Source: Macrostomum lignano
Lineage: Eukaryota
DNA: 64,000 nt
NCBI GenBank assembly: GCA_002269645.1
Contig: NIVC01000164.1
Location: forward strand, 186,001 to 250,000
Direction: 5' to 3'
Below, piece by piece: positions 18,571-64,000 of this stretch; position 1 is the first letter of the stretch; every line of letters begins with the position of its first letter. The notes under the pieces are model-generated. The model did no database searches, was not told the origin of the DNA, and saw nothing but the letters and a program-made list of their open reading frames with translations. Position numbers and translations under genes: made by a program.

Positions 18571-18918
18571 GCTTTTTAAGCATTCGCTGGTAACAAGCTT
18601 ATCAGAATAATTATTAAATGTAAGACAGACAGTAGGCCTGTAAGCTGCACATGGGTAGTTTATACGAAACAAACCGCAGTACAAACAGACGGATCAATGT
18701 CTGTCTACTATTGTGAACAATATTAATGTACCTCTTTTTAGTAGGAGCAGCAGTTCAATGCAGTTTATAAAAATTTGCCACTCTGTTGCAAAGAGGACTT
18801 AGAAGCAGAAATTTTGCCATGCAATGCAATGCACCCTGTTTTTTCTAAGCTAGATACCGGTTCCTTGAAGATCAGCGATTTATCGATTCAAAACAAGAAG
18901 AACAATGCAAGTACTCGC

Positions 18919-19616: not shown

Positions 19617-20537
19617 ATTAAGCTGACATTGACAATCTGAAATTATTCCAATATAAATTTAAGTTGATGTACCAGGTATACTTAGTAACAAATATATATA
19701 TAGGTCTTAATAGCCTAAACTCAAAAAATGACCAACGTTGACACTTGACCCACCATACATTTTTTACTGTAAAAATGTGAGCCTAACAGTAGGCCTGTTA
19801 ATTGCAGCAACAGATAAGCAAATCAAACAGACAGATCAGTGATAGGCATTTTCTATTCCTCATTTTAGTAGGAGTAGATAGATTATTGGTAAGAATATAC
19901 TACTATGTTGCAATGAGGACTAGGAGGTCAACTAGTATCAAATATATAATATTGAATAGCCTTACATTTATTGGTATAATATTCTTGTATATACATAAAA
20001 TAAACTTAAATAATTGAATAAACATTACATAATGTAATATTAATATGCCTATAACTATATTTATACTCAAATACTAATATATCTTTTGTTATGCTGTATG
20101 GAATAGTGGGCCTATATAACTCTTAGTTGGCATACTATACTTTGCTTACTTATTTTGCTTACTTGCTTAGAAAATTGCTAAGGCCTATGGGCATTATTAT
20201 CACTTCACTTCTATAACCAGTAGAGACAACCAAGATGTGGCCATGTGATATTATGTAATGGATTTCTCCTTGCTCCACCTGCTGGGACTTGATGCTTAAA
20301 TCATAAAACCATATAATCTAAGTGCTAGAATGTTTTCACCCCCTAAATGTGCTAAGCTATTTAATGTATTTGTGTCTATAAGTGCAACATGCTAATTCTC
20401 TGACCAACCAACCACCTCAGTGGCAGATTAGATCTACGAGGGGTGCGGGTATAGAGATGGTCACTTTATCCCTCAAGACTAAAGTGGCTAGCCACTTATA
20501 TACTTATGAAGTGAGTAAGATATATACTCAACCTTGA

Positions 20538-41449: not shown

Positions 41450-42612
41450 CACTCTGGAACAGTAGCACTCTGGAACAGTAGCACTCTGGAACAGTAGCAC
41501 TCTGGAACAGTAGCACTCTAGAAAAATAGCACTCTGGAACAATAGCAATCTGGAACAGTAGCACTCTGGAACCGGAGCACTCTGGAACAGTAGCACTCTA
41601 GAAAAATAGCACTCTGGAACAGTAGCACTCTGGAACCGGAGCACTCTGGAACAGTAGCACTCTAGAAAAATAGCACTCTGGAACAGTAGAACTCTGGAAC
41701 AGTAGCACTCTGGAACCGGAGCCCTCTAGAAAAATAGCACTCTGGAACAGTAGCACTCTGGAACAGTAGCACATTAGAAAAATAGCACTCTGGAACAATA
41801 GCAATCTGGAACCGGAGCACTCTGGAACAGTAGCACATTAGAAAAATAGCACTCTGGAACAATAGCACTCTGGAACAGTAGCACTCTAGAAAAATAGCAC
41901 TCTGTAACAGTAGCACTCTGTAACAGTAGCACTCTGGAACAGTAGCACTCTGGAACAATAGCAATCTGGAACCGGAGCACTCTGGAACAATAGCACTCTA
42001 GAAAAATAGCACTCTGGAACTATAGCACTCTGGAACAGTAGCACTCTGGAACAGTAGCACTCTGGAACAGTAGCAATCTGGAACAGTAGCACTCTGGAAC
42101 AGTAGCAATCTGGAACAGTAGCACTCTGGAACCGGAGCACTCTGGAACAGTAGCACTCTAGAAAAATAGCACTCTGGAACAGTAGCACTCTGGAACTGGA
42201 GCACTCTAGAAAAATAGCACTCTAGAAAAATAGCACTCTGGAACAATAGCAATCTGGAACAGTAGCACTCTGGAACCGGAGCACTCTGGAACAGTAGCAC
42301 TCTAGAAAAATAGCACTCTGGAACAGTAGCACTCTGGAACTGGAGCACTCTAGAAAAATAGCACTCTGGAAGAGTAGCACTCTGGAACAGTAGCACTCTG
42401 GAACAGTAGCACTTTAGAAAAATAGCACTCTGGAATAGTAGCACTCTGGAACAGTAGCACTCTGGAACCGGAGCACTCTGGAACAGTAGCACTCTAGAAA
42501 AATAGCACTCTGGAACAGTAGCACTCTGGAACAGGAGCACTCTAGAACAATAGCACTCTGGAACAGTAGCACTCTGGAACAGTAGCACTCTGGAACAGTA
42601 GAAATCTGGAAC
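41450..42612 (+). repeat. 16-bp minisatellite
   Basis: gaacagtagcactctg units, ending just before the exon 6 acceptor. Confidence 0.92.
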
Positions 42613-42640
42613 AAAAAACAACCCACTTACCCACTGCCAG

Positions 42641-42912
42641 GTGATCGGCATCCTAGACTGGGAGTTGTCCACTCTCGGCCACCCGCGAACGGACCTGGCC
42701 ACGTGCCTTCTCGCTCACCGTCTCGACCCGGAATGGAGCGATAAATTCTTGGTGCCATCGCTGCAGCCTCTGCCAGACGGGGTGCCCACTGAGGCGGAGC
42801 TCATCGAAGACTACTGCAAGCGTTTGGGCCTGAGCGGCGGGGTGCCCGACATTGACTTCTATCACGCCTTCGTGATGTTCCGCTTTGCTGCTATTTTGCA
42901 GGGCGTTTACAA
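42641..42912 (+). CDS. ACAD10: ACAD10 exon 6
   Basis: VIGILDWELSTLGHP..DLA...AAILQGVYK. Confidence 0.93.
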
Positions 42913-42914
42913 GT

Positions 42915-43270
42915 GAGTTGCTAGGGGATATGCAGAACCCTCCCGGATCCTCAGTTGCTAGGGGGATATGCAGACCCTCCCGGATCCTCAGTTGCTAGGG
43001 GAACTGGTAAACCCTGGATCCTCAGTTGCTAGGGGGATTTTCAGACCCTCCCGGATCCTCAGTTGCTAGGGGGATTTGCAGACCCTCCCGGATCCTCAGT
43101 TGCTAGGGGGATTTGCAGACCCTCCCGGATCCTCAGTTGCTAGGGGGTTGTGCAGACCCTCTCGGATCCTCAGTTGCTAGGGGAATTGGCAGACCCTCTC
43201 GGATCCTCAGTTGCTAGGGGAATTGGCAGACCCTCTCGGATCCTCAGTTGCTAGGGGGATTGGCAGACCT
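42915..43270 (+). repeat. ~37-bp minisatellite occupying most of ACAD10 intron 6
   Basis: gaccctcccggatcctcagttgctaggggg units. Confidence 0.9.
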
Positions 43271-43306
43271 CCTTAATTTCGCCTAACCACATGCCCCCCT
43301 CAACAG

Positions 43307-43805
43307 GCGCGCCCTCGACGGCCAGAGCAGCTCGGCGAAGGCCAAGATTGTGGGCTCATTCGCTCGCGATGTGGCTCGCCTCGGCTGGACGGTGGCCCAG
43401 CGCTCCGGCCTGCCCAGCCAGCCCAGTCACAGTTTCTCATCGTCGGCCTCGGCGACATCCGGCATGCCTGTCAGCCTGTCGGATCTCCGACCCGAAGTTC
43501 GTCAACTGCACGCCAAAATTCGGGCATTTGTTCGCGACAGGATTTTGCCACTAGAATCCGAGCTGAACTCGCACTACGAGTCCCAGTCCAAGTGGACGGT
43601 GCACCCCAGTATTGAGCGGCTGAAATCTGAGGCTAAAAATCAGGGCCTCTGGAATCTGTTCCTGCCTGTAGAGTCGGATCCGAACCGGCTGTACTCGCCC
43701 GGCCTCACTAACTTGGAGTACGCCTTCCTGTGCGAAGAGATGGGCTGGTCCGTATATGCCTCTGAGGTGTTCAACTGTTCCGCTCCGGACACTGGGAATA
43801 TGGAG
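43307..43805 (+). CDS. ACAD10: ACAD10 exon 7 (start of ACAD domain)
   Basis: KRALDGQSSS...GLWNLFLP...GLTNLEYA..CEEMG...FNCSAPDTGNME. Confidence 0.93.
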
Positions 43806-43849
43806 GTTTGTCGCTTCTGTAACACCTGCTGCATTATGTATTCACAATC

Positions 43850-45250
43850 TAACACCCATCCAGTTACCCGAAATCCCCAATCTTACGAGCTAACATCCCA
43901 GTTACCCGAAATCCCCTATCTAACATCTATCAGTTTACCCGAAATCCCCAATAAAACACCCTGTCAGTTACCCGAAATCCCCAATCTAACATCCCATCAG
44001 TTTACCCGAAATCCCCAATATAACACCCTGTCAGTTACCCGAAATCCCCAATCTAACATCCCATCAGTTTACCCGAAATCCCCAATCTAACATCCCATCA
44101 GTTTACCCGAAATCCCCAATCTAACATCCCATCAGTTTACCCGAAATCCCCAAGCTAACATCTATCAGTTTACCCGAAATCCCCAATATAACACCCTGTC
44201 AGTTACCCGAAATCCCCAATATAACACCCTGTCAGTTACCCGAAATCCCCAATCTAACATCCCATCAGTTTACTCGAAATCCCCAATATAACACCCTATC
44301 AGTTTACCCGAAATCCCCAATCTAACATCCCATCAGTTTACTCGAAATCCCCATTATAACACCCTATCAGTTTACCCGAAATCCCCAATCTAACATCCCA
44401 TCAGTTTACTCGAAATCCCCATTATAACACCCTATCAGTTTACCCGAAATCCCCAATCTAACATCCCATCAGTTTACTCGAAATCCCCATTATAACACCC
44501 TATCAGTTACCCGAAATCCCCAAGCTAACATCCCATCAGTTTACTCGAAATCCCCAATATAACACCCTATCAGTTTACCCGAAATCCCCAATCTAACATC
44601 CCATCAGTTTACTCGAAATCCCTATTATAACACCCTATCAGTTTACCCGAAATCCCCAATCTAACATCCCATCAGTTTACTCGAAATCCCCAATCTAACA
44701 TCCCATCAGTTTACCCGAAATCCCCAATATAACACCCTAACAGTTACCCGAAATCCCCAAGCTAACATCCCAGTTACCCGAAATCCCCAATCTAATACCC
44801 TGTCATTTACCCGAAATCCCCAATCCAACACCCCAGTTACCCGAAATCCCCAATCCAACACCCCAGTTACCCGAAATCCCCAATCCAACACCCCAGTTAC
44901 CCGAAATCCCCAATCCAACACCCCAGTTACCCGAAATCCCCAATCCAACACCCTGTCAGTTTACCCGAAATCCCCAATCCAACACCCTGTCAGTTTACCC
45001 GAAATCCCCAATCCAACACCCTGTCAGTTTACCCGAAATCCCCAATCTAACATCCCAGTTACCCGAAATCCCCAATCTAACATCCCATCAGTTTACCCGA
45101 AATCCCCAATCTAACATCCCAGTTACCCGAAATCCCCAATCTAACATCCCATCAGTTTACCCGAAATCCCCAATCTAACATCCCAGTTACCCGAAATCCC
45201 CAACCCAACACCCCAGTTACCCGAAATCCCCAACCCAACACCCCAACCAG
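43850..45250 (+). repeat. ~33-36-bp minisatellite occupying ACAD10 intron 7
   Basis: acccgaaatccccaatctaacatcccatcagttt units; the last unit supplies the acceptor. Confidence 0.92.
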
Positions 45251-45605
45251 GTGCTGGTCCGCTACGGCACAGAGGAGCAGAAGCGCCGCTGGCTCGATCC
45301 CCTCCTAGCAGGCAGCATTCGCTCCTGCTTCGCAATGACGGAACCGGCCGTCGCCTCTTCGGACGCCACCAACATCGAAGCTTCGATCTGCCGCTCACCA
45401 GACGGCTCTCACTACGTAGTGAACGGCCACAAATGGTGGATCTCCGGAGCCCTGCATCCCAATTGCAAAGTGGCCATATTTATGGGCAAAACTGATACTT
45501 CAGCAGCCGCTCACAAACAGCAGACGATGCTGCTTGTGCCGATGGACTCGCCCGGGGTCACCGTGGTTCGTCCTCTGCACGTGTTCGGCTTTGTTGACGC
45601 TCCAG
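45251..45605 (+). CDS. ACAD10: ACAD10 exon 8
   Basis: [19 protein letters not shown]...[10 protein letters not shown]. Confidence 0.93.
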
Positions 45606-45717
45606 GTGAGTTCAGTTTAAAGTAATTTTTATTAATGTTCAGTTTGCTAGCTGTCAGCTCTCTACAGTAGCTCACAGCTGTACACGTTGATATCATGGCA
45701 GTGTGAGCTCGGGGCCC

Positions 45718-46640
45718 ACGTTTGACTGACACATTTTGACTGACACTACTTTGACTGACACATTTTGACTGACACTATTTGACTGACACTATTTGACTGA
45801 CACTTTTTGACTGAAACATTTTGACTGACACTATTTGACTGACACTATTTGACTGACACTTTTTGACTGACACTACTTTGACTGACATTACTTTGACTGA
45901 CACTACTTTGACTGACACTTTTTGACTGACACTACTTTGACTGACACTTTTTGACTGACACTACTTTGACTGAAACTACTTTGACTGACACTTTTTGACT
46001 GACACTATTTGACTGACACTTTTTGACTGACACTATTTGACTGACACTATTTGACTGACACTTTTTGACTGACACTATTTGACTGACACTTTTTGACTGA
46101 CACTTTTTGACTGACACTACTTGGACTGACACTTTTTGACTGACACTATTTGACTGACACTATTTGACTGACACTATTTGACTGACACTTTTTGACTGAC
46201 ACTATTTGACTGACACTTTTTGACTGACACTTTTTGACTGACACTACTTGGACTGACACTTTTTGACTGACACTATTTGACTGACACTTTTTGACTGACA
46301 CTATTTGACTGACACTTTTTGACTGACACTTTTTGACTGACACTTTTTGACTGACACTTTTTGACTGACACTACTTGGACTGACACTTTTTGACTGACAC
46401 TATTTGACTGACACTTTTTGACTGACACTATTTGACTGACACTTTTTGACTGACACTTTTTGACTGACACTACTTGGACTGACACTTTTTGACTGACACT
46501 ATTTGACTGACACTATTTGACTGACACTTTTTGACTGACACTATTTGACTGATACTACTTTGACTGACACTACTTTGACTGACACTACTTTGACTGATAC
46601 TACTTTGACTGATACTACTTTGACTGACACTACTTTGACT
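45718..46640 (+). repeat. ~15-bp minisatellite
   Basis: tttgactgacacta units. Confidence 0.92.
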
Positions 46641-47319
46641 CTCTCTCTCGAAATCTATAGTGAATAAACAATTTCTAATAACCGATCAAACCCTATGGTA
46701 AACAATGAAGTTAAATATGCAATAATATTTTAGTCATTTTTTCTTCAATTGATTAAATTGCCGAATTTTATTGGGTTTCGTTGTAAGTTTAAGGTTTTTT
46801 ACCATAATACGCTCATATTTGTTTTTGACCTTGCTCTGTGCTTGAAACAATTAGGCATCATAAATTGGTAATTAATCATTTGCGTAGTTACTGTGTATTT
46901 AAAATGCTACACAACCACCCCGACCCGCCTCCATTCCCTTTCTGTCTCCCCCGCAAGCTAATTAGTCATCATGTGAGTGTAATGTGAGTTTGCTCATAAT
47001 TAGCCGGCTAGAAAGGTTAAAAGTACAGACAAATATTGGACGAACTTTTGTGCATATATATTTTGTTACAGGGATTTTCTAAAAGTACAAGTTACAACAA
47101 TTTTTGCGGGAAATGTAACAAGTTTTTCAATATAGTTGATTGACTGGAGAGAAGGCAGTTGTCTTCTGCCTATTGTATTCTGTTCTGTAGGCTGAACTTT
47201 TTACTTTGCTCATTCGTATTAGAAACAAGTTTTCATACTTCTCAGTTGATGGAGTTTTGAGTTGGTGAAGTTTTAAGATGATGGAATTCTGAAATGATAA
47301 AGTTTTGAGCTTTACATTC

Positions 47320-47885
47320 ATCTTAAGCTGATGTAGTTTTGAGCTAATGGAATCTTAAGCTGATTTAGTTTTGAGCAGATGTAGTTTTGAGCTAATGGAA
47401 TCTTAAGCTGATTTAGTTTTGAGCAGATGTAGTTTTGAGCTAATTAGAATCTTAAGCTGATGTAGTTTTGAGCAGATGTAGTTTTGAGCAGATGTAGTTT
47501 TGAGCTAATTAGAATCTTAAGCTAATGTAGTTTTGAGCTGATGTAGTTTTGAGCTGCTGTACTTTTGAGCTGCTGTAGTTTTGAGGTGATGGAATCTTGA
47601 GCAGATTGTAGTTTTGAGCTGATGTAGTTTTGAGCTGCTGTAGTTTTGAGGTGATGGAATCTTGAGCAGATTGTAGTTTTGAGCTGCTGTACTTTTGAGC
47701 TGCTGTAGTTTTGAGGTGATGGAATCTTGAGCAGATTGTAGTTTTGAGCTGATGTAGTTTTGAGCTGATGTAGTTTTGAGATGATGGAATCTTGAGCAGA
47801 TGTAGTTTTGAGCTGATGGAGTTTTAAGGTGATAGAGTTTGAGATGATGGAGTTTGAGATGATGGAGTTTTAAGCTGATGGAACT
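47320..47885 (+). repeat. 16-bp degenerate minisatellite
   Basis: gctgatgtagttttga units. Confidence 0.85.
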
Positions 47886-48239
47886 ATTGGAACTGAAAAT
47901 TCAACTCAGCTACACTACTCGTAATTGCGCACCCAGATCATTGCTATAAATATACTTTATGATGATTTTTTAGCCTAAATTAGGCTTTTCAGCTGCTTCG
48001 CCTCTTGGCTTTATTATAAATCAAGGTAGAAAACTTCAGCAGTAAAAGCTGAAGCATAGTTAATTGAGGAAATTAGAAGTGGGAGGAAAATAATTATTCG
48101 TACCCTCGAAAAAATGTAAGAAAAATGGACATTTTGATGTTCTGATGCACCTGACTAAATTATTGCCATTTTTTTCAAATCCTTCTTGAAAATTTTCGGG
48201 CTGATTTATGATAATTAAACTGGATTTGTGTGCTTGAGA

Positions 48240-48562
48240 AGGCGCCACAAACAATGCTTGAGATGGCGCCACAATCAATGCTTGAGATGGCGCCACAATC
48301 AATGCTTGAGATGGCGCCACAATCAATGCTTGAGATGGCGCCACAATCAATGCTTGAGATGGCGCCACAATCAATGCTTGAGATGGCGCCACAATCAATG
48401 CTTGAGATGGTGCCACAATCAATGCTTGAGATGGTGCCACAATCAATGCTTGAGATGGCGCCACAATCAATGCTTGAGATGGTGCCACAATCAATGCTTG
48501 AGATGGCGCCACAATCAATGCTTGAGATGGCGCCACAATCAATGCTTGAGATGGCGCCACAT
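48240..48562 (+). repeat. 30-bp minisatellite, ~11 copies
   Basis: ggcgccacaatcaatgcttgagat-type units. Confidence 0.9.
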
Positions 48563-48608
48563 TAAACGACCTTGTCTTCTCAGCAAAGAGTCCATTCGAC
48601 AAATCAAT

Positions 48609-48900
48609 GGGAGGTTGTAGCCTAGTGGTTAGAGCGTCGGACTCACGACTTAAAGGTCGGGGGTTCGATTCCCGATCCCACTCGGAACAATTTATGCCCT
48701 TGAGCAAGACACAACTCTGCACTGCTTCAGTTCACCCAGCTGTAAAATGGGTGCCAGCATTAGCTGGGGTAATTGAGGGTGTGTGGCGACCCCCCAGTCC
48801 TTGGACTGAACAGCCGTACGCAGCCTTCAGATGCGCCGCGCAATAGCTGCGGCTGAGCTGTCGGTTGCACCTCTGGTCCAATTGGGCCAGGTGTAATCAA
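48609..48900 (+). mobile_element. tRNA-derived SINE with CORE/Meta-like central domain
   Basis: A box TAGCCTAGTGG, B box GGTTCGATTCC, then ccttgagcaagacac...cagttcacccagctgtaaaatgggt resembling the CORE-type domain; no tRNA acceptor stem. Confidence 0.75.
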
Positions 48901-49954
48901 TTATTTTTAATATTATTACAAATCAATGACTTGAACAGAGTTTATCATTGCTTAATATAGAATCCTCTGTTTTGACTTGAGTATATTTTTCAGGTAAAAA
49001 AATTGCCTAAAAGTAAAACAGCCAGTGCGGTGATGTCAAGTCGGATTTTTCAGTTTCCGTTTAAATATCTTAGGCATATGAATGCATCTAGGCTGGTATA
49101 CATAAACTTGAACAAATACTATGCATTGCTTACTTTATATGCTCATAGTAATTTTTTGCAGTGTATGCTTTGAAAAATGAAGCACATGTTTTCCAGTTGC
49201 CGTATTTACACCAAGCGACCATATAAACTTTGACAGGGGACTCTGAACTGAATCAAAAAAATTACAGAACTTTTTTTATTAGTGAGTCATTATCGCTATA
49301 AATTGTAATCAATTGAAACAAGATTGGAATTTTTTTTGAATGACACAAACGGACTTATTAGTTAACAGTGTTTTAACAATCGGGCTCGCAGTTGCACAAG
49401 TTATTTAGCTATAGTTAATTGCCACAGTTAGTTTCTTAAATAGCAAATTTGGCTTTTGACTGCGTTTGGTGCTAAAATCAACACAAGATGTCTCTCTTGT
49501 CTGTCTGGAACCCTGCATGGTTACTGTTTTATGACTTATTATCGTTAAAAACCGTGTTGGAACTTCTATCTATTAGTAACCATGCAAGGTTAGCAGAGAT
49601 TTAACTGGCAACAGGTATAAAATTTACAATAATAATATTAAGAAGGTTAATTACTTGTGTAACGATGTGTAAAACTGCACAGAATTTCTATACATACAGG
49701 TAAACAGAACGAAAGCTGACGAGTGCACAAGGACTAAACAGACACACGAAGACACAAGTTAGTTTATAGAGTTAGACAGCAGCAAATAGAAAAATCATAT
49801 CGGTTAAATATTATAATTATGATTACTATTTGTTGTTTAGCTAGTAGGAGGGAAAAAGCATCGGTTCACAGAAAGCGAAGAATGAAATCTTGGACACAAG
49901 GACTCAAACTTTTTGTATAAGAGTTACGAATTCCTTACTGAAAATTACATAGTT

Positions 49955-51445
49955 CTAAACAACGCTGACCTCGCCTTCATGACTGGTGGAGCCGGCAGAC
50001 TCGCCATCGCTGCTCGAAGCTTCCGCAGCGTCCTCGGTTGAGAATGGATTCTCTCGTTTGGCCAGTTTGAGCAGCACCCGAGGCGGGTGCAGCAGGTGCA
50101 GAGAGTCCATGTCCACGTAGGATAGGAAGGCGACCACCTCCGCCGGGAAGGTCTGCGCCAGTCTGCGCAGCTTTGCTCCAAAATCCACGCCGCCGATGTT
50201 ACGTCGAACGGCGTTGCGCGCCTGCAGTCTCAGCGACATTGGTCGCTTGTTGAAATCCGAGCAGGCCCGTTGCAACGTCTCCAGATTGTCTTTGAACTCT
50301 TGGCGTCGCTGGGAGTAGCGCTTAGCGTACAGCTTCCTGAGGGAGAGGTTCTCCAGGCTCTCGCTGATCTCTTCGCTTGTTGGATGCGAGCTGCTCAACG
50401 ATAAGAAGTTGATAAGTAGCAGGGCGGCCTCCTGGATGATTGGCGGTAGCTGGATGTTCGACCCGTACTGGTCAAGTCTGGGGTGGCACAGCAGACAGAT
50501 CAGGATGCCGAACCAGTTGTGCGACGAGGACAGAAACTCGAGGCATTCGAACTCGGAAAAGCCGGCTTTGATTAAACTTCTGACTGTGAAGATCTCGGCG
50601 CACGAGTCGTTCTGTTCGGGAATGTCCGGCACCGTGTTGTTCTCGTTGGTGTACTTGGTGAGGTACCAGTTTAGCGAATAGCCTAGCGAATTGAACAATA
50701 TGATAGAATCGATTCTGTGCACGTCGATGCCTCTCAGTAGCAGCTGGGGCAACTGCTGAAAGAAATAATAAAACGTTGACGGCGACGAGTAGCCTACAGC
50801 CGACGAGCTCATTCTTTGCATCTCCTCGCCCAGAAATTCGTAGATCGATCCGAAGTAGTAGTCCAAAGCTGACTGGTAGGTGTAGCGGCCCTTTGTCCAG
50901 AACTTCTTGTAGGGCACCATCGCTGAGCGATTGCTGGACGCCGGCGAGAAGTTCCACCGTTTGCACTGCAAAGGCCTGTTAGGATCGTGACCGTATTTGG
51001 CTAGAATTGGCAGCATCTGCCACTGCTGATTGTCCACTGCCCAGACCACTGGCGAGCACTCTTGGTGAAAGTGTAGAAATGGATCCTGGCTTCTGTTGGT
51101 CCAGGCTAGGAAATTCGGGCTGAGGTGTCGCCTCTTGACCGAGACAACCACCTTGGATGGAGGCACCGCTCGCAGTTTGCGGAGTATCCGCTCCACCGAC
51201 CGAGTATTGCCCAGCTGGATGTGATAAGCCAGTCTCTCTGTTAGCTTCTCAATCGCGTCGGCGTTTACTGGATTCGCTCGACCTGCCGCGCCGCTACCTG
51301 CCCCGGCGCCGGCGCCAAAACAGGCGCCAAACAGGCAGGCAGCGCCGCCGGCAGCGCCTGTACCGCTGCTGACAGTCGATGCCGTGGAATTATTGCTCTT
51401 AGTTGAAGCTCGTTTAGATCGAACTAAGCAGCCTGTTTGCGACAT
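49955..51445 (-). CDS. Intronless ankyrin-like + SOCS-box protein (ASB-like), nested antisense in ACAD10 intron 8
   Basis: 496-aa non-repetitive ORF with host-like codon usage; CSPVVWAVDNQQWQMLPILAKYGHDPN (ankyrin-like); PMSLRLQARNAVRRNIG...FPAEVVAFL (SOCS box). Confidence 0.8.
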   Translation of the reverse strand: MSQTGCLVRSKRASTKSNNSTASTVSSGTGAAGGAACLFGACFGAGAGAGSGAAGRANPVNADAIEKLTERLAYHIQLGNTRSVERILRKLRAVPPSKVVVSVKRRHLSPNFLAWTNRSQDPFLHFHQECSPVVWAVDNQQWQMLPILAKYGHDPNRPLQCKRWNFSPASSNRSAMVPYKKFWTKGRYTYQSALDYYFGSIYEFLGEEMQRMSSSAVGYSSPSTFYYFFQQLPQLLLRGIDVHRIDSIILFNSLGYSLNWYLTKYTNENNTVPDIPEQNDSCAEIFTVRSLIKAGFSEFECLEFLSSSHNWFGILICLLCHPRLDQYGSNIQLPPIIQEAALLLINFLSLSSSHPTSEEISESLENLSLRKLYAKRYSQRRQEFKDNLETLQRACSDFNKRPMSLRLQARNAVRRNIGGVDFGAKLRRLAQTFPAEVVAFLSYVDMDSLHLLHPPRVLLKLAKRENPFSTEDAAEASSSDGESAGSTSHEGEVSVV

Positions 51446-52719
51446 TCTGCACCTCACTAGTTCTGACTGATGTATTCCTTAGCAACCGAAGCTGGACGCA
51501 GTTTGCGTCTAGAACTAATTGGTTCAAGGCTGTTCTATCTCTATGTGTGTAGAGATTTTCTATAGAAAGTATTTTACCGATAGATTGTGAGACGAATCGG
51601 TGGAAAAGATGCGTATATATATATGCAAATTAACTCGTGCATGTGCACACGCCCTTTGGTATACTACATAGTCAGTGTTCGGCCGTCGCTTTCAGAAAAG
51701 TGTAGAGAGAGGGGGGAGAGGAGAGGAGGGGGGAAGGAGGCAAATGGTACATCAAGCCGATAAAAGAGACGACAGGAGAGAAAAAAAAGGATAGAAGGAA
51801 ACGGAGAGAAGAACGCAGGCGCCCACGAGTGCGACAGTAGAGACTGCTGCTGTCGCTGCCGCTAAGCGAATAGAAAAGCGAGCTGCAGACATGGGAGAGG
51901 GCAGAGAGAGAGGGGGAGAGAGCAAATGGTGGGTTGTGTAGGTTCTAATCTGAACAGTCGGCGGGGCAGTGCTGGCTTGTCAGTAGTGCAGGGAAGTGCA
52001 GTAAGAAGGAGAAGGACAGAGATAGATCAATAAAAATCTTTCACTGACGTAGCGGGCCTATTGTACGTTTACGGCGAGTGTACACGCAGCGTTAACTCTC
52101 TCTCTCTCCCTCTCTTGCCCCCCTGGCAGTGCACAACAGCGTCAACCCCAACTCCTGCATAAGAGATGCAAATGATCCTATCCTTTTTCGGCCTTTGAAT
52201 CGACTTGGGGGTGGGAACCTTGTCCAGACCAGTCAGAAACTACTCCTCGGATTTGGGAATGACGTTCTTGTCTTTCTCCTTCCTCTCTTTCTCTCTCGCA
52301 AGGTCGGGCCTAACGGGGGGCACCAGCTTTCTTAATCCTCCTACTCTTACAGTCTCCCTCTCCCCGTCTTTCAGTCTTTTTGAGTTCTATAATTCTGGAC
52401 ACAGGGGGAGATGTTTTATTCAAATAAAATTTCTGTTATCTAGCGTGCCACTTCCGCTTAGCCCTTAACTGACCTGTGTTATAGACTGGTTAGTACTTGT
52501 GTATTAATAATAGTAATGCTTGTACAAATAACTGGTCACGCGGTGTCTTATCTCGGTAGGGCGGTTCAGGGTGGCGTCGGTAGGCTGCACCCCTACCTTT
52601 GTATTTCCGGCTTCAATCTGCTAGGTTTTATATGTTTTATCGCAGCCTGAATATAATTGTGTTGAGTGCTGCCGTACCCGCTGTGCACAGTTCCACCTAG
52701 TCCTATGAGTAATGTAATG

Positions 52720-53670
52720 TATTCTATCCACCATCTACCTGCATTCTATCCGCCCTTCTACCTGCAGTCTATCCACCCTCTACCTGCATTCTATCCGCCC
52801 TTCTACCTGTATTCTATCCGCCCTCTACCTGTATTTTATCCGCCCTTCTACCTGTATTCTATCCACCCCTCTACTTGTATTCTATCCGCCCTCTACCTGT
52901 ATTCTATCCGCCCTTCTACCTGCATTCTATCCACCCTCTACCTGCATTCTATCCGCCCTTCTACCTGTATTCTATCCACCATCTACCTGCATTCTATCCG
53001 CCCTTCTACCTGTATTTTATCCGCCCTTCTACCTGTATTCTATCCACCCCTCTACTTGTATTCTATCCGCCCTCTACCTGTATTCTATCCGCCCCTCTAC
53101 CTGTAGCCTATTCGCCCCTCTACCTGTATTCTATCCGCCCCTCTACTTGTATTCTATCCGCCCTCTACCTGTATTCTATCCGCCCTTCTACTTGTATTCT
53201 ATCCGCCTTTCTACTTGTATTCTATCCACCCTTCTACTTGTATTCTATCCGCCCTTCTACCTGTATTCTATCCGCCCTTCTACCTGTATTCTATCCGACC
53301 TTCTACTTGTATTCTATCCGCCCTTCTACCTGCATTCTATCCACCAATTACATGCTCCCGTCACTCCACCCCAAATCGCCCGTCACTCCACTTCAATTAT
53401 CCTTCACTCCACCCCAATTATCCTTCACTTCACCCCAATTATCCGTCACTCCACCCCAATTATCCTTCACTCCACCCCAATTATCCTTCACTCCACCCCA
53501 ATTATCCGTCACTCCACCCCAATTATCCTTCACTCCACCCCAATTATCCTTCACTCCACCCCAATTATTCTTCACTCCACCCCAATTATCCTTCACTCCA
53601 CCCAATTATCCTTCACTCCACCCCAATTATTCTTCACTCCACCCCAATTATACTTCACTCCACCCCAATT
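52720..53670 (+). repeat. Two adjacent minisatellites (~22-bp ctacctgtattctatccgccc; ~21-bp cactccaccccaattatcctt)
   Basis: The second array ends ~15 nt before the exon 9 acceptor. Confidence 0.9.
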
Positions 53671-53688
53671 TTCTTGTGCCCATTGCAG

Positions 53689-54256
53689 CTGGCCACGCGG
53701 AAGTCCGTTTCGACAATGTCATTGTACCAGCCGAGAATGTTCTTCTAGGCGAAGGTCGCGGATTCGAAATCGCCCAGGGCCGGCTTGGTCCCGGCCGGGT
53801 GCATCACTGCATGCGGCTGATCGGCCATTGCGAGAGAGCAATCGAGCTGGCTTGCCAGAGAGCAGTGTCCCGGGTAGCGTTCGGCAAGCCGCTAGCTGCT
53901 CAAGGCAGTGTTCAGCAGAGCATCGCTTGGAGCCGGGCCCAGCTGGAGGCTGCCCGCCTTCTAGTGCTGAAAACTGCCCACCTGATGGACACCGTTGGCA
54001 ATAAAAAGGCCATGAAAGAGATTGCGCTAATTAAAGTAATGACCCGCGAGTTGCCACGGAGATAATTGATAGGGCTATTCAAATTCACGGCGGAGCCGGA
54101 CTGTCGCTTGACCTGCCTCTGTCTGTGCTGTACACCTGGTCTCGGGTGCTGCGGCTGGCCGATGGACCGGACGAAGTTCATCTAAGGTCAGTCGCCAAAC
54201 TGGAGCTGGCGCCGCACGTGGCTGCGTCGAGTTCGGTGCGCTCGTCTAAGCTTTGA
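53689..54256 (+). CDS. ACAD10: ACAD10 exon 9 (last), with 1-bp deletion at ~54042-54045
   Basis: GHAEVRF...[19 protein letters not shown]; after the shift, [11 protein letters not shown]...[11 protein letters not shown]...SSKL*. Confidence 0.9.
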
Positions 54257-56938: not shown

Positions 56939-58112
56939 CGAGGGGTGATCAAAAAGTTCTGCAACCTTTTGTTATAGCTTTTAGTTATAGAATCGGGAAA
57001 AGCCAAAAACTTACACATATGCAGCTGTATCTGTTTGCTATATTTATATGCATTTTTGGCTTCCAAATGTGCTCCAGTAAAATTTCACAGCCATATATTT
57101 TCCATGTGTTTTCAGTAGCTGATGGAAACAACAAAAGACAGTGTTCGCTTCTATATCTTTATGTGCATGCAACTTGGTTGCAAAGTGACTGAGATTCACA
57201 CCGATCTGGTGAATGTTTTAGCTGACTCTGCTCCATCATTTGACATGGTTGCCCGCTGGCTGCGCCATTTCTTGGAAGGCTGGGACAGCTTCAACGATGA
57301 ACCGAGGTCTGGCTGACCCCGGACATCCGTGACCGAAGATGTCGTGGCCCGTGCCGATGCAATAATTCGTGAGGATTGGAGCATTATGCTAAGATTCATT
57401 GCCTATGAGCTTGGTGTCAGCTGTGGAAGTGCTCATAACATCATGCATGAGCAACTAGGCCGCACAAAGACCTGCGCTCGGTGGGTACCCCATCTTCTCA
57501 CTCCGGAGCAGCAAGCAGAGAGGGTGCGCAACTGTCGCTTGTGGCTGCAAATGTTTGAGCCCCACGGCCCACGACGACTGTCGGATGTCATCACAGGAGA
57601 CGAATGTTGGATCTCCTTCTTTTACCATGAAGGATAAGCAGTCCAACATGGTCTGGCTGGCAGAAGATGAGCCAATGCCTGAGGTGCTGAAGACCGGATT
57701 CCGCAGTCGGAAGCGGATGTTCACCATTTTTTTCAACTCTCAGGGTGTTGTATCGGTAAACATCCTTCCAGCGGGTGCCACAGTGACTGCCAGGTACTAC
57801 ACAGACACTGTTCTGCCAGGAGTGCTGCAGGAGCGGCAGGAATGTGCGCGAACCAGACATGGACCTCGACTCCTGCTGCACCATGACAATGCGGCACCGC
57901 ACAGAGCGGCCTCAACCATGGCGTACCTGGAGCAGCAGGGGGTCCGGCTGCTGCCCCATCCATCCTACTCTCTAGACCTAGCACCTTGCGACTTTTGGCT
58001 GTTCCCGAGGATCAAATCCGTCATTTCTGGGAGGCCGTTTTCACACATGCAAGACCTTGCCCAAGCGGTACATTCAGCTCTACAGGGTATACCAACTTCG
58101 GAGTACCAGGAC
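56939..58112 (+). mobile_element. Mariner (DD34D) transposon, inactive, truncated by the Polinton insertion
   Basis: TA target + TIR-like CGAGGGGTGATCAAAAAGT; transposase from 57122 with WVPHLL, TGDE, HDNA, YSLDLAPCD; premature TGA at 57314 (SG-R-P CGA>TGA) and a frameshift at ~57620. Confidence 0.92.
57122..58112 (+). pseudogene. Mariner transposase pseudogene
   Basis: Three ORF fragments (57122-57316, 57329-57637, 57555-58124) join into one transposase lacking its last ~20 aa. Confidence 0.88.
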
Positions 58113-58384
58113 AGTAGTATATAAAAAGACGCTTCTAGACCCAGAGCACTTTTTTAATGACCGTTTTAAGGGTCTAGAGGGGGGACACGGGGGGGTAAAT
58201 AAAAAAACACATCTAAACACCCTTAACACATCTAATCACCCATAATCACCCCTAACAATAAAAATCACTTCCCAACACTTCCAAACACTCCCCAACACCC
58301 CCCTCGCGTCCCCCCTCTTAAGACCTTACAAACGGTCATTAAAATAAGGTCTGATCTAGAAGCGTCTTTTTCTATACTACTACT
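58113..58384. repeat. Terminal fold-back: ~85-bp imperfect inverted arms (58113-58197 / 58296-58384)
   Basis: AGTAGTATATAAAAAGACGCTTCTAGA... versus ...TCTAGAAGCGTCTTTTTCTATACTACTACT; spacer of ~100 nt has no G on the top strand. Confidence 0.88.
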
Positions 58385-58769: not shown

Positions 58770-59024
58770 ATGAACTATTATTCTATAACAGAAACGACAT
58801 TTATTGTGAAAAATATATATAAAAAAATGAAGGTAAATCGAACCCATGGTTCGCGTGCTTTGCACGATTACTCCTACATCGGAAATGTGCCGATTAATGA
58901 ACTTAATGAAAATTTAAGTTTGATAACAGTTGAACAAATGTCAATAATAATATTAGTAACAATTATTGTAATAATATTGTTTTTGTTTGTTATTAAAAAT
59001 TTACTACTATGTTGTCTTAAGTAA
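58770..59024 (+). CDS. Polinton small single-pass membrane protein
   Basis: 84 aa; C-terminal hydrophobic stretch IIILVTIIVIILFLFVI followed by LLLCCLK; TAAAAAATG start. Confidence 0.7.
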   Translation: MNYYSITETTFIVKNIYKKMKVNRTHGSRALHDYSYIGNVPINELNENLSLITVEQMSIIILVTIIVIILFLFVIKNLLLCCLK

Positions 59025-59034
59025 CTGATCGAAC

Positions 59035-60183
59035 TTAGTTTGCAGATAATATCTGATTCTCATAAAACGAACCCAATATTTCTTCACCGTCCTTATCAGC
59101 AATTATATAGGTTGTAGGATTGGTATTTAAAACTTTACTGATAGTAAATTTCTCACTTATCTTCCAATATCCTTTTCTTCCTTTTTCAAACTTATCTTTC
59201 CATTTATAGATATAAACAGAATCACCAACCTTAAAAGATTTCTTTTTATTTTTTTCAAATTTTCCAAAAGTAACTTTAACGTTTTCAGGATTGTTATAAG
59301 CTTGTTGAGGAGTCATCTTTATCGCCGAATGATATGAATTGTTATAATCTTTCACTACGTCTGGTAATATTTTTACCCATTTTTGGTTACCATTAAGACT
59401 AAACTGAAACCATAATTTCTTACCTAAAGTTCTATTAAATCTTTCTATTAATGCGTTTTTACTCTCTCCATAAATAGAATAAATTTTATTAATATACTCC
59501 CCATTCGCGTCTTTTTTCCTTTCTTCTCCTTTTTCAAAATGATATAATTTATACATATGAGGATTGTAAAATTCTTTTCCTTCGTCAACACACAACCTTT
59601 CACTTTTTTCTCCAAGACTTCTAAAAGCAGCAGCAACCTCCTCTCCCTTTTTGGATTTTAAAGGAACAGCCCACGCGTATCGAGTAAAACCATCTAATAT
59701 GGTTAAGATATATTTATATCCTCTTTCGTTCGGCATCGACATTAAATCAGCATACCAAATTTCATTCTTTTTGAAGTTCATGATTTTTCTATAAAATTTC
59801 GGTTTTCGATATTCTTTATGAAGAATCTTTGCCTCATCAGAACTTAACCCACCACCACTTAACAACAAACACTCAACACAATTATTTCCATGTTGATTAT
59901 AATTAATTCCCAAACCAAATTTAACTTTAGACTGCAAGATCTTTTTAACCATCCACCTAGTTAATCTTTGCCCTACCGATAATCCCTGCAAGTTATCTAA
60001 TCCTTGAATCATTTTTTGATCGGCTTCGTGTTTTAATCTTAACGCTTCCTCGGGCGGGTTCTTATCAGCATCTCTGTATGCTAAGTCATGATAGTATGCC
60101 AACCAATCAATTCCATTTATGGGAATTGAATCGGCTTTTGGAGTGTCATCAGGATTTAATCTCAAATCTAAGCGAGTGCCGGG
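59035..60183 (-). CDS. PLA2X-integrase fusion, exon 2 (rest of PLA2 domain + retroviral-type integrase)
   Basis: PGTRLD..PINGIDWLAYYHDLAY (parvo-type PLA2 HD); WYADL / VDEGKEF / ALIERFNRTL (DDE); C-terminal FKVGD..GSFYE typical of Polinton integrases. Confidence 0.92.
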   Translation of the reverse strand, partial: PGTRLDLRLNPDDTPKADSIPINGIDWLAYYHDLAYRDADKNPPEEALRLKHEADQKMIQGLDNLQGLSVGQRLTRWMVKKILQSKVKFGLGINYNQHGNNCVECLLLSGGGLSSDEAKILHKEYRKPKFYRKIMNFKKNEIWYADLMSMPNERGYKYILTILDGFTRYAWAVPLKSKKGEEVAAAFRSLGEKSERLCVDEGKEFYNPHMYKLYHFEKGEERKKDANGEYINKIYSIYGESKNALIERFNRTLGKKLWFQFSLNGNQKWVKILPDVVKDYNNSYHSAIKMTPQQAYNNPENVKVTFGKFEKNKKKSFKVGDSVYIYKWKDKFEKGRKGYWKISEKFTISKVLNTNPTTYIIADKDGEEILGSFYENQILSAN

Positions 60184-60516
60184 TAGTTTACCCCCAATCT
60201 TTCGAAAGAGGCTGGAGCACACCTTAAGCGGCGATAATTACCGCCCATCTCCGTCTGCTCTCTGAACCTTCTCCTTATATTTAAAATACTTAGGAGCTTG
60301 GCTGCACATTGCCACCGTGTCTTCAAGCTTTTTACCATCGAACCATAGGTTCGCGGACGAAGTCCGATTGGGAAGAGGAGTTACCTCTGTTCCTTCAAAA
60401 GATTTCTCAATTGAAGTGGTACTTGAAGCTGTATGACGGGTTTCACGCAATTTGGAGATGTCGCCACAAATAGTGACTAGCAAGGACATTGCCTTCCTCA
60501 CTCAGGCCACGGGTTA
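60184..60516 (-). ncRNA. Group I intron, subgroup IC1-like, 333 nt, no internal homing endonuclease
   Basis: P element AAATTGCG; Q TGCAGCCAAG; R GTTCAGAGAGCA; S TAAGGTGTGCTCC; P3 CATCTCC/GGAGATG; P7 G-a-GAGCA/TGCTCC; P1 with U.G at the 5' splice site; removal restores NFTG|PGT. Confidence 0.9.
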
Positions 60517-60642
60517 ACCTGTGAAGTTCATTGATGGTAGGTGTAGTTCCCCTGTATATTTACCAGTAGTAAAGATTGGTGGTAAGCTTGTTAATCCTTT
60601 TTGAACATCTAAAAATCCTCCTTCAAATACTATTTGGTTCAT
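60517..60642 (-). CDS. PLA2X-integrase fusion, exon 1 (42 aa)
   Basis: TAAAAATG start at 60642; MNQIVFEGGFLDVQKGL...GELHLPSMNFTG, the N-terminal half of the PLA2X ELHLP..N..GPGT motif; missed by the ORF track. Confidence 0.88.
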
Positions 60643-61126
60643 TTTTAATGTTTAAAAAACATGTTTCTATCAATTTAATAATTTCTAAATATTGGCCACC
60701 ATATAAAAAATTTAAAGCAAATTCCCCAGTTAACAAGGTAACTCCATTATCAAATACTTTTTGTACGGGGTTTTTAGTAGTATTATTAATGCAAATATAA
60801 TATAAATCAAATTCGGGATTAACATATTTAAATTCTAATAACTTTTGAATATTTCTAAATCGACTTGATGAATTATCTGTGTTATCAGAAGATTTTAACT
60901 CTAACGCAACTTTTCTTTCTGTATGAATTAAATCAATTTTATTTACTTTTTCAAAACCAAAATGTTTAATAGCTAATAATTCATAAAGAGATCCAAGTTT
61001 CATTTGTATTGTTTTAATATGGTTTGCAATTATTAATTCATCTTGAAATATTTTATTCAGTATTCTGTCAGAACCAACTTTATCACAAATAGGCTTACAA
61101 AGGTGGTCTTTTATTGTTTCATCCAT
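60623..61126 (-). CDS. PD-(D/E)xK nuclease, type II restriction-enzyme-like
   Basis: LGSLYE...KIDLI...ALELKSSDNTDNSSS: E..D..ExK spacing; NT.NSSS recalls Eco47II-family enzymes (from memory, not searched). Confidence 0.65.
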   Translation of the reverse strand: MDETIKDHLCKPICDKVGSDRILNKIFQDELIIANHIKTIQMKLGSLYELLAIKHFGFEKVNKIDLIHTERKVALELKSSDNTDNSSSRFRNIQKLLEFKYVNPEFDLYYICINNTTKNPVQKVFDNGVTLLTGEFALNFLYGGQYLEIIKLIETCFLNIKNEPNSI

Positions 61127-61153: not shown

Positions 61154-61837
61154 TTAAACACCAGTATGTCCAGCAGCTTTCGCAGCAGCTAAAACAAGTT
61201 TTCTAGGAGTTTTAAATCCATCACCAACAGCTGGTTTGTTATTTATAGAATTAACAATCCATTTATACAAGCTGGTATTTTTAACAGCTCCTCCTAAATC
61301 ATCATAAAAAATTCTAGCACTTACTAAATCATTCTTAGTATAAAAATCAGGGTTAAACTTAACCCTAGGGTTAGTAATAATTCTATATGCTCCGCCCAAT
61401 TCTCTATATAGTTCATTTCGATCTTTATCAACGTTACCAATTCGGTAATTATTATTACCTAAATCTGTCACAGCAATACTAGCTGGTACTCTTGGAAATT
61501 GTTTAACTTCTTCACCCCTTTCTGCAGCCCTAATCTCTGCACGTCTAATCTCTGCAACTCTCAATTGAGCTTGATCAACATCATAAGCAGGCGGCTCATC
61601 CAAAATTTCATCCTCTTTTGGCTCAGTATTTGTAGCAATTTTTTCCAGAAGATCTTTATCTGTTTTTTCTAGTTCACTAATTTTCCCAGTAATAGGATTA
61701 ACAAAAGGAGCAGCAAATCTTTCGCCAGCTAATTGTATTCCTAACTTTCTTTTTTGTAAATTTCTAACAAAATCAGAATATCTTTGCTTCTCTTTATAAA
61801 TCGCTAACTCTCCATCAACGTCCATAAATTGACTCAT
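61154..61837 (-). CDS. Polinton hypothetical protein (227 aa)
   Basis: Intact ORF with TAAAAAATG start, same codon style as neighbours; contains PPAY. Confidence 0.75.
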   Translation of the reverse strand: MSQFMDVDGELAIYKEKQRYSDFVRNLQKRKLGIQLAGERFAAPFVNPITGKISELEKTDKDLLEKIATNTEPKEDEILDEPPAYDVDQAQLRVAEIRRAEIRAAERGEEVKQFPRVPASIAVTDLGNNNYRIGNVDKDRNELYRELGGAYRIITNPRVKFNPDFYTKNDLVSARIFYDDLGGAVKNTSLYKWIVNSINNKPAVGDGFKTPRKLVLAAAKAAGHTGV

Positions 61838-61871: not shown

Positions 61872-63350
61872 ATGGCTGAAACAAAAACTATGTGGAGTGA
61901 TAAATTTCATTTCAAAAAGCACCGACAGTATATTAATGAGGTCAGAGCAAGAGATTTAAATTATACCCTACCAACAAGTGATAATTCAAATAACTTTACT
62001 ACTGGAACGGTAACTTTTGACATCGGCGCAACCAACACTATATTGGATATGAAAAATGCGTTTTTCCGCGTTAGATGGTTGTATACTAGAAATGATGGAA
62101 CTGCTCTTGCAGCCGGAGATATCGCAGATCGATCCGGAATAATAATAGAAAATGATTGGTTTTATAAATGTTTTTCCCAAGCTCAACTAACTGTTAATGG
62201 TGCTGAGGTTGAGACATCATCAAACCCCGCAGAGATTAATGGAGTTTTGAAACATTTAAATTATACTTATTTATCAAAACAAGTTGGTGATAATGTTGGG
62301 TGGATGCCGGATAAAGGTAACGGTCAAGCAGTAGTTTTCCCTAATGTACAAAACGCAGCCGGTGCAGATACTGCAGCGCTAATTGTTTACCTTAATACAA
62401 ACATAGTTCCAGTTGTAACCACTATGACTAATACAAAAGATATTAATACTGGTTTTATAGATCGTCAGAATAAATTCCCAGTCGCGGTTTTAACCACAGC
62501 AACAGCATATGAGCAGGACTTTTCAATCTTTCCACTATTTGGGTTTTTCTCACCAAATCGGGTATGGAAAGGATTAAAATTTGGGATACAGTTGCAAATA
62601 TCTGGTGGATATCAGCCTAGGATACTTTATGGAACCTCAATTTCAACCGATATAGCAGTTCGTATAGATTCAATTCAATTACTCGTAGTCGTACCAACTA
62701 TTGAGGTAACAGCCCCACTTTTAAAACACATCGATAATCAGTTAACGCATGATCAGGAAATATTTTATTTGAATCGTCGACATTTTATGCGAACCATTAA
62801 TAATAACCAGGATTCATTCCAGTGGCAAATACTGACATCAAAACGTCGGGTGAGATATATTTTTGTTTGGTTTAAGATAACAAATAGAAGGAGTAAAAGA
62901 GCAAATGGGGATTTATATTGGCTTCAATCCGGTGCCATAGCAGAACAAGCAGCCACCGCAACAGACAATGCGGCTGCAGCTATTAACGAGTTTAATGTTC
63001 AGAATATCCGCCTGCAGGTTGATGATCAATATTATCCGGTTAAAGACCCCCTAAATTTAAATATAGCAAATAATAATGTTAATGATTTTATAAAATATTA
63101 TCAAGATTATGCTAAAAATGAAGCGTATGCCGTCCCTCAGTACACACCCACAGAGTTTCTAAACATTCATCCAGTGGTTGTTTATGATCTAACGGCACAG
63201 AAAGAAAACGTAGCCAATATTGGACTTAATTATATGTTAGAGATTAATAAAACTGGTAATCAGGCACTTGACGCCCACGTATTGTTTCTAGAGGAATATA
63301 TGTCAATTGCTAAAGCTGATGGCACGATTGTTCGGGACGCCCCGCTGTAA
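61872..63350 (+). CDS. Polinton major capsid protein (double jelly-roll)
   Basis: 492 aa; VTFDI....LD..NAFFRV and NDWFYKCFSQAQLTVNGAEVE patterns typical of Polinton/adintovirus MCP; lies next to the ATPase. Confidence 0.82.
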   Translation: MAETKTMWSDKFHFKKHRQYINEVRARDLNYTLPTSDNSNNFTTGTVTFDIGATNTILDMKNAFFRVRWLYTRNDGTALAAGDIADRSGIIIENDWFYKCFSQAQLTVNGAEVETSSNPAEINGVLKHLNYTYLSKQVGDNVGWMPDKGNGQAVVFPNVQNAAGADTAALIVYLNTNIVPVVTTMTNTKDINTGFIDRQNKFPVAVLTTATAYEQDFSIFPLFGFFSPNRVWKGLKFGIQLQISGGYQPRILYGTSISTDIAVRIDSIQLLVVVPTIEVTAPLLKHIDNQLTHDQEIFYLNRRHFMRTINNNQDSFQWQILTSKRRVRYIFVWFKITNRRSKRANGDLYWLQSGAIAEQAATATDNAAAAINEFNVQNIRLQVDDQYYPVKDPLNLNIANNNVNDFIKYYQDYAKNEAYAVPQYTPTEFLNIHPVVVYDLTAQKENVANIGLNYMLEINKTGNQALDAHVLFLEEYMSIAKADGTIVRDAPL

Positions 63351-63399
63351 GCGGCGCAGGTCTCCGACCGTCGCGCCTATTTAAATTATTTCTTTAAAA

Positions 63400-64000
63400 A
63401 TGGTAAAGGCAAAACACGATAAGATATTTCCAAATGATCCTTTTCTTTGTTTAGTAATCGGAGGGTCGGGTAAAGGAAAAACACACTTTGTTTACGATTT
63501 ATTAACAACAGATGGAATGTTAGACTATAATAATTTAATAATTTATACTAATAAACCTAGAATAAAATATTATGAATTTCTTAAACATGGATTAAAAAAC
63601 AAATTAAAAAAAGATGTCTTGTTTAGAATGTTAAGAGCATATGAGCAATATGAGGATGATGACGAACCGCGATTTACACTCGATGACATTGAGGATTTAT
63701 GTAAAACAATGGCACAACAGCCAGAAAACATCACCGAACGAGCCCCAACTGTTAGAGTATCAACCCGATTAGCCTATGATCAAATTCCAAAACATGATAA
63801 AACACTAATTATTTTTGATGATTGTATTAATGACGGTGATCAAGAATTGCAAAAGGAAATTTTTGTTAGTGGTAGAGGAGATGGAATTGGAGCTTTTTAT
63901 CTAACACAGTCCTTTAGAGAATTAGAATCGATTATAAAAAAGAATGCAAGTTGTTGTGTAATGTTTGATTTAGATAATTATGATTTACAAAATATACACG
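63400..64000 (+). CDS. A32/FtsK-like packaging ATPase (partial, runs off the window)
   Basis: Hand-translated: Walker A GGSGKGKT, Walker B LIIFDD, SGRGDG, FYLTQS; absent from the ORF track because no stop lies in the window. Confidence 0.92.
   Translation, partial: MVKAKHDKIFPNDPFLCLVIGGSGKGKTHFVYDLLTTDGMLDYNNLIIYTNKPRIKYYEFLKHGLKNKLKKDVLFRMLRAYEQYEDDDEPRFTLDDIEDLCKTMAQQPENITERAPTVRVSTRLAYDQIPKHDKTLIIFDDCINDGDQELQKEIFVSGRGDGIGAFYLTQSFRELESIIKKNASCCVMFDLDNYDLQNIH

Follow-up and report, generated by a model that had tools for sequence, protein, structure and literature searches.

The Polintons of an animal nuclear genome almost certainly harbour a genuine family of group I introns. One member lies in the window (the whole 64,000-nt stretch of Macrostomum lignano DNA analysed here), where it interrupts a gene that joins a PLA2-like domain to an rve integrase. 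This places group I introns in a protein gene of a bilaterian nuclear genome, in more than 100 copies, and makes group I splicing on animal nuclear mRNA testable. More surprising than the intron itself are the nuclease that accompanies it and its predicted target, a site which the intron interrupts; such an arrangement would explain how the intron spread.

The interrupted gene and its ribozyme

The gene and its intron comprise the following features, in window coordinates:

59035..60183, minus: exon 2, 382 aa, the remaining PLA2-like domain and the rve integrase (Pfam rve, E 1.6e-7)
60184..60516, minus: group I intron, type A, 333 nt, without an open reading frame (ORF) (RF00028 match; boundaries from intron-free alleles)
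60214..60262, minus: P7 with the G-C guanosine-binding pair, and P8 60245-40/60235-30 (helix table, covariation)
60246..60460, minus: core (helix table and covariation)
Part of the core, minus: P3 60460-54/60252-46; P4 60449-44/60308-03; P5 60439-35/60316-12
Part of the core, minus: P6 60302-00/60268-66; P6a 60296-92/60275-71
Inside the core 60246..60460, minus: P5abc, with an A-rich bulge and a GAAA loop
60339..60366, minus: optional double hairpin inside P5abc, missing from 303-nt variants
60503..60521, minus: P1, in which the internal guide 60507-60503 binds the five terminal bases of exon 1 (U.G at the splice site)
60517..60642, minus: exon 1, 42 aa, the N-terminal portion of the PLA2-like domain; in intron-free homologs it runs on directly into exon 2

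The product of exon 2 matches foamy-virus integrases, and its PLA2 match, taken alone, is sub-threshold (15.2 bits). In an intron-free homolog (P0123) the PLA2 match reaches 32.9 bits and spans the junction, so that the intron cuts the PLA2 domain. An earlier note, made from the sequence alone, had called the gene PLA2X, a name given to a PLA2 domain with a C-terminal pX-like domain (PMC8502044); the PLA2 half of that label held good in P0123, but the partner domain found was the integrase. The PLA2 His-Asp is kept in 5/5 intron-bearing lineages compared.

The earlier note had also proposed a 333-nt group I ribozyme intron on the minus strand and a covariance-model search as its check. In the E-value mode of cmscan, RF00028 matched 60193-60526(-) over model positions 1-253 with 56.8 bits (E 2.5e-13), above the gathering score of 50 bits. 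The same intron was not reported by a fast gathering-mode scan of the whole window; that fast filters miss it may be why such introns have been overlooked. The split falls exactly at MNFTG/PGTRL, as had been read, with exon 1 ending at 60517 and exon 2 starting at 60183. A search for intron-less alleles, likewise proposed, found three in the same genome among 107 gene copies scored with an intron-free query. Their frames are open (431–432 aa), and they fix the insertion site precisely between the Gly and Pro codons, a junction that lies in the PLA2 calcium-loop motif.

The insert has a GC content of 0.47 against 0.32–0.35 in the flanking exons, in line with its description as GC-richer than its surroundings. 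Most full-length database homologs are contiguous at the insertion site. Three in-frame stops interrupt the insert (intron positions 1, 13, 277), and read-through was rejected on their account. Spliceosomal removal was rejected too, as the ends are not GT-AG and nearby GT and AG yield a stop (by eye).

Folding of the window intron gave a z of -2.8, with 0/100 shuffles as stable. P1, P2.1, P3, P5abc, P6a, P7, P8, P9 and P9.0 were located where they had been claimed (fold and helix table), and P10 forms four of the five pairs ascribed to it (by eye). P2 had to be redrawn: rather than the 4-bp AAGG/CCTT it is an 8-bp helix, 60502-60495/60486-60479, which covaries in four intron types. The P4 helix is present, with the correction that three of its pairs in the window copy are wobbles, one of which occurs at no other of the 43 type A places.

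Covariation was assessed in an alignment of six introns, three of which are near-identical type A rows, with P8 excluded as misaligned in the non-A rows. Within the core, 97.8% of 179 cells pair, and 9/32 core pairs show two-sided changes; slid controls pair only 36–50%. P7 has six Watson-Crick pairs, as the earlier note had it, in all six aligned introns, with two-sided changes in 4/6 pairs. It is also 6/6 Watson-Crick in type C, giving five P7 sequence versions overall, and the G-C guanosine-binding pair is intact and invariant in the six aligned introns and in type C. A U.G pair stands at the 5' splice site of P1 in 5/5 introns compared, and the P1 guide changes together with the exon in type C. 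The final intron base (60184) is A, not omega-G, omega having been placed via the 2-bp P9.0. IC1 introns are recognised by a P5abc with an A-rich bulge, by P2/P2.1 and by IC1-type P/Q sequences. Each of these was seen by inspection in the window intron, which supports its assignment as an IC1-like group I intron, the IC1 label resting on these inspected features.

The element, its host and the intron family

The window element, taken together with its sibling copies, is an integrated Polinton, with repeats, integrase, polymerase B and ATPase. Beyond the interrupted gene, its features in the window are:

58113..58381, plus: end of the element, which starts with AGTAGT, is palindromic within itself and lies in a mariner-like transposase remnant
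60623..61126, minus: free-standing PD-(D/E)XK nuclease ORF, 167 aa, Eco47II/EcoO109I-like (homology, fold)
61154..61837, minus: ORF of unassigned function upstream of the nuclease slot (no Pfam match)
61872..63350, plus: 492-aa ORF, presumed major capsid protein from size and position only
63385..64000, plus: A32-type packaging ATPase, running past the window (Pfam Pox_A32 28.6 bits, cut-off 22.8)

The window contig ends inside the element, and polymerase B is not on that contig; in sibling copies (e.g. C2506, C3109, C955, C826) it lies ~10–11 kb from the gene. A sibling copy of 23 kb, the one complete copy examined, has both terminal inverted repeats and a perfect 6-bp target duplication. Searches for capsid, penton and protease gave no Pfam or PDB match, these being presumed from position only, and the single-sequence fold of the 492-aa ORF has a pLDDT of 29. 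The arms of the terminal repeat (58113-58139/58355-58381 and 58152-58195/58301-58344) are such that each end could form a long hairpin, and the ends of type B elements look similarly palindromic. The mariner-like transposase remnant broken by the Polinton occupies 57200-58112.

Wnt domains mark animals and Prospero domains mark bilaterians. The genome gave 86 Wnt matches and 35 Prospero-domain matches, and Wnt exons lie on some of the contigs that hold element copies (C506, C952, C393, C67). Together with the repeats and the target duplication, these contigs bear out the proposal that the intron lies in a protein gene of a Polinton integrated in an animal nuclear genome. Elsewhere in the window, a host gene for an acyl-CoA dehydrogenase, which also encodes a phosphotransferase domain (ACAD10/11-like) and has repeat-rich introns, runs over ~42600-54100 (+), and a 507-aa ORF without a Pfam match (49955-51478, -) is nested in one of its introns. 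GC-richer element families with polymerase B are also present in the genome (C1131, C1704 and others).

Exon 2 occurs in at least 108 copies in the genome, and three intron types (A, B and C) occupy one site. De-duplication of 60 loci left 46 places, 43 of them type A. Type A introns are 333 or 303 nt long and end in A at 35/43 places and in G at 8/43; terminal G is also found in type B and in the metagenome introns L112 and L075. Type B introns are ~880 nt long, with an ORF in the P2.1 loop and an RF00028 score of 88.9 bits, and the 28 RF00028 matches for type B in the genome are all on nuclease-bearing contigs. Type C gave 23 full-length matches; its core, complete when aligned by hand, differs in P4, P6 and P7, and its J6/7 we take to be IE-like; RF00028 detected neither type C nor the truncated L075.

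Over the core, types C and A share 65% identity, whereas the genes are 98% identical; the 3' core of type C is closest (77%) to the metagenome intron L112, whose protein is 40% identical. This mismatch between core and gene identity indicates that introns moved laterally between elements, and the family is very probably mobile. Decayed type C-like introns (74–75% identity) with a broken flanking gene (C45, C114, C2521; L147-L149) indicate that the association of intron and element is not recent. One type C intron (L058 1167-1491) looks chimeric, its P5abc and P2/P2.1 being type A-like and its catalytic core unlike type A. A small GC-rich hairpin motif recurs at 60339-60366 (in P5abc), at 58839-58853 and at L063 ~1031-1060, as well as upstream of exon 1 in some copies with the 303-nt intron; it looks like a tiny mobile double-hairpin element.

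Outside this genome, an intron at the same site was found in 2/66 metagenome loci (L112 and L075), and related Polintons elsewhere do therefore carry it. L112 scores 80.6 bits against RF00028 and has an ORF in P2.1. Several database proteins, e.g. P0131, start with translated intron 3' ends and cluster with intron-free members. The metagenomes with relatives are of sediment type. The viral contigs searched held no relative of the PLA2-integrase gene, a phage collection gave no match, and prokaryote genomes gave one nuclease relative; 11 P5abc-motif matches in the viral contigs were dismissed as chance.

A restriction-type nuclease and the GGNCC pentamer

The window nuclease, encoded just upstream of the interrupted gene, shares 63% identity with the intronic ORF of type B. 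Against the Pfam RE_Eco47II profile the intronic ORF clears the cut-off (30.1 vs 25.9), with the window ORF falling under it at 18. The structural model (pLDDT 92) best matches EcoO109I (Z 10.1, rmsd 3.6, 166 aligned), the only match with Z over 8, and a PDB sequence search with the nuclease profile returned only AvaII (E 0.31). The nuclease lies inside the intron in type B and in L112, and among 31 database nuclease homologs 13 have C-termini that read into the intron core. In a tree of 42 rows, from which homologs shorter than 140 aa were excluded, the free-standing ORF is nested among intronic ones as sister to type B (97/88), which suggests that the nuclease gene left the intron.

Giant-virus relatives of the nuclease (11 loci, L151-L161) are 28–33% identical and adjoin a C5 methylase in 8/8 tested; L160 and L161, of which one is catalogued as a bacterial MAG, seem to be one stretch. 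In the genome studied here, none of the 12 C5 methylase matches is on an element contig. An HNH-like ORF occupies the nuclease slot in other copies and in all three intron-free alleles, the HNH label being based on a motif recognised by eye and on an Atlas lead scoring below 0.9, with unnamed viral proteins as the nearest Atlas clusters. This ORF (L063 462-1082; L139-L141) has near-identical junctions to the PD-(D/E)XK ORF that it replaces. The nuclease is present on 29/103 contigs and on 0/3 intron-free alleles, a difference that is not significant.

Eco47II cuts GGNCC, and EcoO109I has the site RGGNCCY (PMC10305163, PMC3299994). Family and fold predict GGNCC specificity for the nuclease, a prediction that preceded the counting. 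Gly-Pro codons always spell GGNCC, and GGN^CC is found at the insertion point in 28/29 intron-free homologs. If the nuclease cuts GGNCC without a methylase, the element should be free of this pentamer. Three non-overlapping type A stretches, covering ~11.7 of 23 kb, contain 0 against 6.2, 0 against 1.5 and 0 against 3.2 expected, the last being the polymerase part of a sibling; type B contains 0 against 4.0. Across the element stretches counted, the total is 0 against ~15 expected, and GGNCC is the most depleted of the 16 palindromic pentamers in each of the four stretches. Even with a halved expectation, P for this absence is about 6e-4. GGNCC is likewise absent from 68 redundant genome loci, and from elements with the HNH-like ORF (L063). 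Intron-free alleles contain a single GGNCC in ~1 kb, which is the insertion site (2/2 counted).

In metagenome relatives GGNCC is not depleted (172 vs 178 over 66 loci; 28 vs 36.9 over the 24 intron-free ones), and another Polinton family has 14 vs 20.2. The observed/expected ratio in host DNA is 0.25–1.1 over eight stretches, with 16 vs 45.7 in window 1-16000. By a trinucleotide model, host window 1-16000 and 18000-25000 are GGNCC-poor (0.35–0.5); repeats may inflate the expectation, though the shortage may also be genuine. Near giant-virus relatives, depletion is mixed, with GGNCC at rank 1 in 4/11 loci. The scarcity of Gly-Pro in proteins was discarded as evidence, being uninformative: homologs are short of Gly-Pro too (18 vs 52).

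Splicing, spread and known systems

No exon-exon joint was present among the matches listed from four contig sets of presumed RNA type, drawn from 23 listed runs; contig sets readily lose short contigs across a junction. A single contig of 781 nt crosses the 3' site unspliced. The terminal A, combined with an unchanged G-binding pair, predicts a slow second splicing step. The ND5-717 intron lacks omega-G and still gives ligated exons, inefficiently (PMC6545197), and a missing omega-G would be expected to lower efficiency and leave family identity unaffected. At the 3' junction of type C, 6/6 copies examined contain extra bases: one reading of the junction is in frame with an extra residue, and the structurally better one meets a stop. 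With its terminal A and extra P4 wobble, the window copy is probably a weak splicer, and the chance that it splices in the animal may be put slightly under one half. Covariation and the retained PLA2 His-Asp argue for a lineage dependent on splicing, from which present splicing of the window copy is a separate matter.

The explanation favoured here, with moderate confidence, combines a mobile intron at the Gly-Pro junction, a nuclease that cuts GGNCC and an element purged of GGNCC. In this explanation a mobile intron family in GGN^CC of the PLA2-integrase gene has reached a bilaterian nuclear genome on Polintons, and a guanosine-initiated two-step reaction would remove the intron and restore the fused frame. 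The nuclease may stem from a giant-virus type II restriction enzyme that lost its methylase and would cut GGNCC; the element would have escaped self-cleavage by shedding every GGNCC but one, which Gly-Pro makes unavoidable and the intron splits. Rivals that have no intron would be cut at that GGNCC and then either repaired from an intron-bearing copy (homing) or destroyed. In the window lineage, the nuclease gene would have moved out of the intron and now act by collaborative homing. A 5-bp enzyme would be usable for homing because the other sites have been purged and the intron interrupts the last one; an objection is that a 5-bp cutter without a methylase should harm host DNA unless confined. 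The odds lean modestly towards a link between the intron and a restriction enzyme without a methylase, whose site the intron splits, and to the same degree towards a domesticated restriction enzyme that drives or protects a mobile intron. The boldest version, in which active mobile group I ribozymes splice bilaterian nuclear mRNA and spread via a methylase-less 5-bp enzyme serving as homing nuclease, is tentative, at somewhat less than an even chance.

It is unlikely, though worth weighing, that the intron belongs to a viral phase and rides along as a passenger, most endogenous copies splicing poorly and multiplying as transposons, with the nuclease a hitch-hiking cassette. A corollary of comparably low probability is that the integrase is made from an internal start or supplied in trans, PLA2 being dispensable. 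The terminal A at 35 of the 43 type A places would follow, as would the ambiguous type C junction common to all six copies examined, the absence of a junction from the contig sets of presumed RNA type, the alternation of PD-(D/E)XK nuclease and HNH-like ORF in the upstream slot, and a Met upstream of the integrase core that is invariant in 27 homologs. However, core covariation across lineages, the His-Asp kept in all five intron-bearing lineages compared and the swapping of introns between near-identical genes are hard to reconcile with a mere passenger, and the absence of GGNCC would go unexplained.

That absence, along with the GGN^CC site data, would also suit a nuclease used to attack co-infecting elements or giant viruses, or a purge of GGNCC by outside restriction, though this is less likely still. 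The intron would then be kept for removing the last unavoidable site and would spread by ordinary recombination and selection, a reading of similarly slight probability. The restriction-modification origin of the nuclease, the lack of GGNCC in elements with the HNH-like ORF (L063) and the carriage of such systems by giant viruses (PMC12220804) speak in its favour; the ORF inside the intron in many lineages, the classic homing-intron arrangement, does not, nor does the slight depletion in intron-free relatives. That the assembly is at fault, or contaminated by a free virus or a protist symbiont, is very improbable and already largely refuted. Protist Polinton-like viruses are reported to have group I introns (PMC12220804), sediment-type metagenomes contain relatives and the window contig ends inside the element, yet terminal repeats and a perfect 6-bp target duplication bound the 23-kb copy, more than 100 copies exist, some of them decayed, contigs are shared with Wnt exons, and the stretch was found in 20 runs from six studies under one organism label.

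Under the favoured explanation of a homing nuclease, intron swapping bears on the co-infection of Polintons as viruses, since homing needs two element genomes per cell. The nuclease would represent a direct transition from restriction enzyme to homing enzyme, with a sharp GGNCC prediction, and a case in which a nuclease gene has moved out of the intron that housed it. Searches of full-text literature, a scope in which subscription journals are mostly not represented, turned up no account of such introns in Polintons of animals or elsewhere in animal nuclear DNA, and within that same scope none of an Eco47II-type intron nuclease. Here 'such introns' means group I introns of any subgroup. In the part consulted of a survey of 42,459 introns, animals are represented by placozoans, corals and sponges only, mostly by mitochondrial introns (PMC11835236), and nuclear group I introns have been described as confined to the rDNA of microbial eukaryotes (PMC3679873).

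With IC1 introns of the Tetrahymena LSU type, the family shares the P1–P10 layout, P/Q/R/S-like elements, P2/P2.1, P5abc and the P7 G-C pair; it differs in its location, a protein gene carried by a nuclear element in an animal, in its short 3' end and, in type A, in its mostly terminal A. The introns of protist Polinton-like viruses are similar as RF00028 matches of 309–376 bp inside protein genes (PMC12220804), but the account given of them there is limited to rhizarian, chlorophyte and cryptophyte cases, places them in a 50-aa gene near the capsid gene, and in the passages concerned describes no nuclease or target (PMC12220804). Hexacoral ND5-717 is also an animal group I intron without omega-G, although mitochondrial, obligatory and non-bilaterian (PMC6545197).

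Among the nucleases, PD-(D/E)XK I-Ssp6803I and EDxHD I-Bth0305I likewise unite a restriction-type fold with a group I intron (PMC3424549, PMC3239194), yet the nuclease described here belongs to a separate, Eco47II/EcoO109I-like family, and the 17-bp target of I-Ssp6803I (PMC3424549, PMC3239194) contrasts with a predicted 5-bp site and element-wide avoidance. The giant-virus Eco47II-family pairs have a nuclease 28–33% identical to the present one, which in these Polintons is intron-encoded and without a methylase partner. Phage collaborative homing offers the closest parallel in arrangement, a free-standing nuclease beside an ORF-less intron with a predicted target in the intron-free allele (PMC11296320); there the free state is proposed to have come first (PMC11296320), whereas here the tree suggests an exit from the intron.
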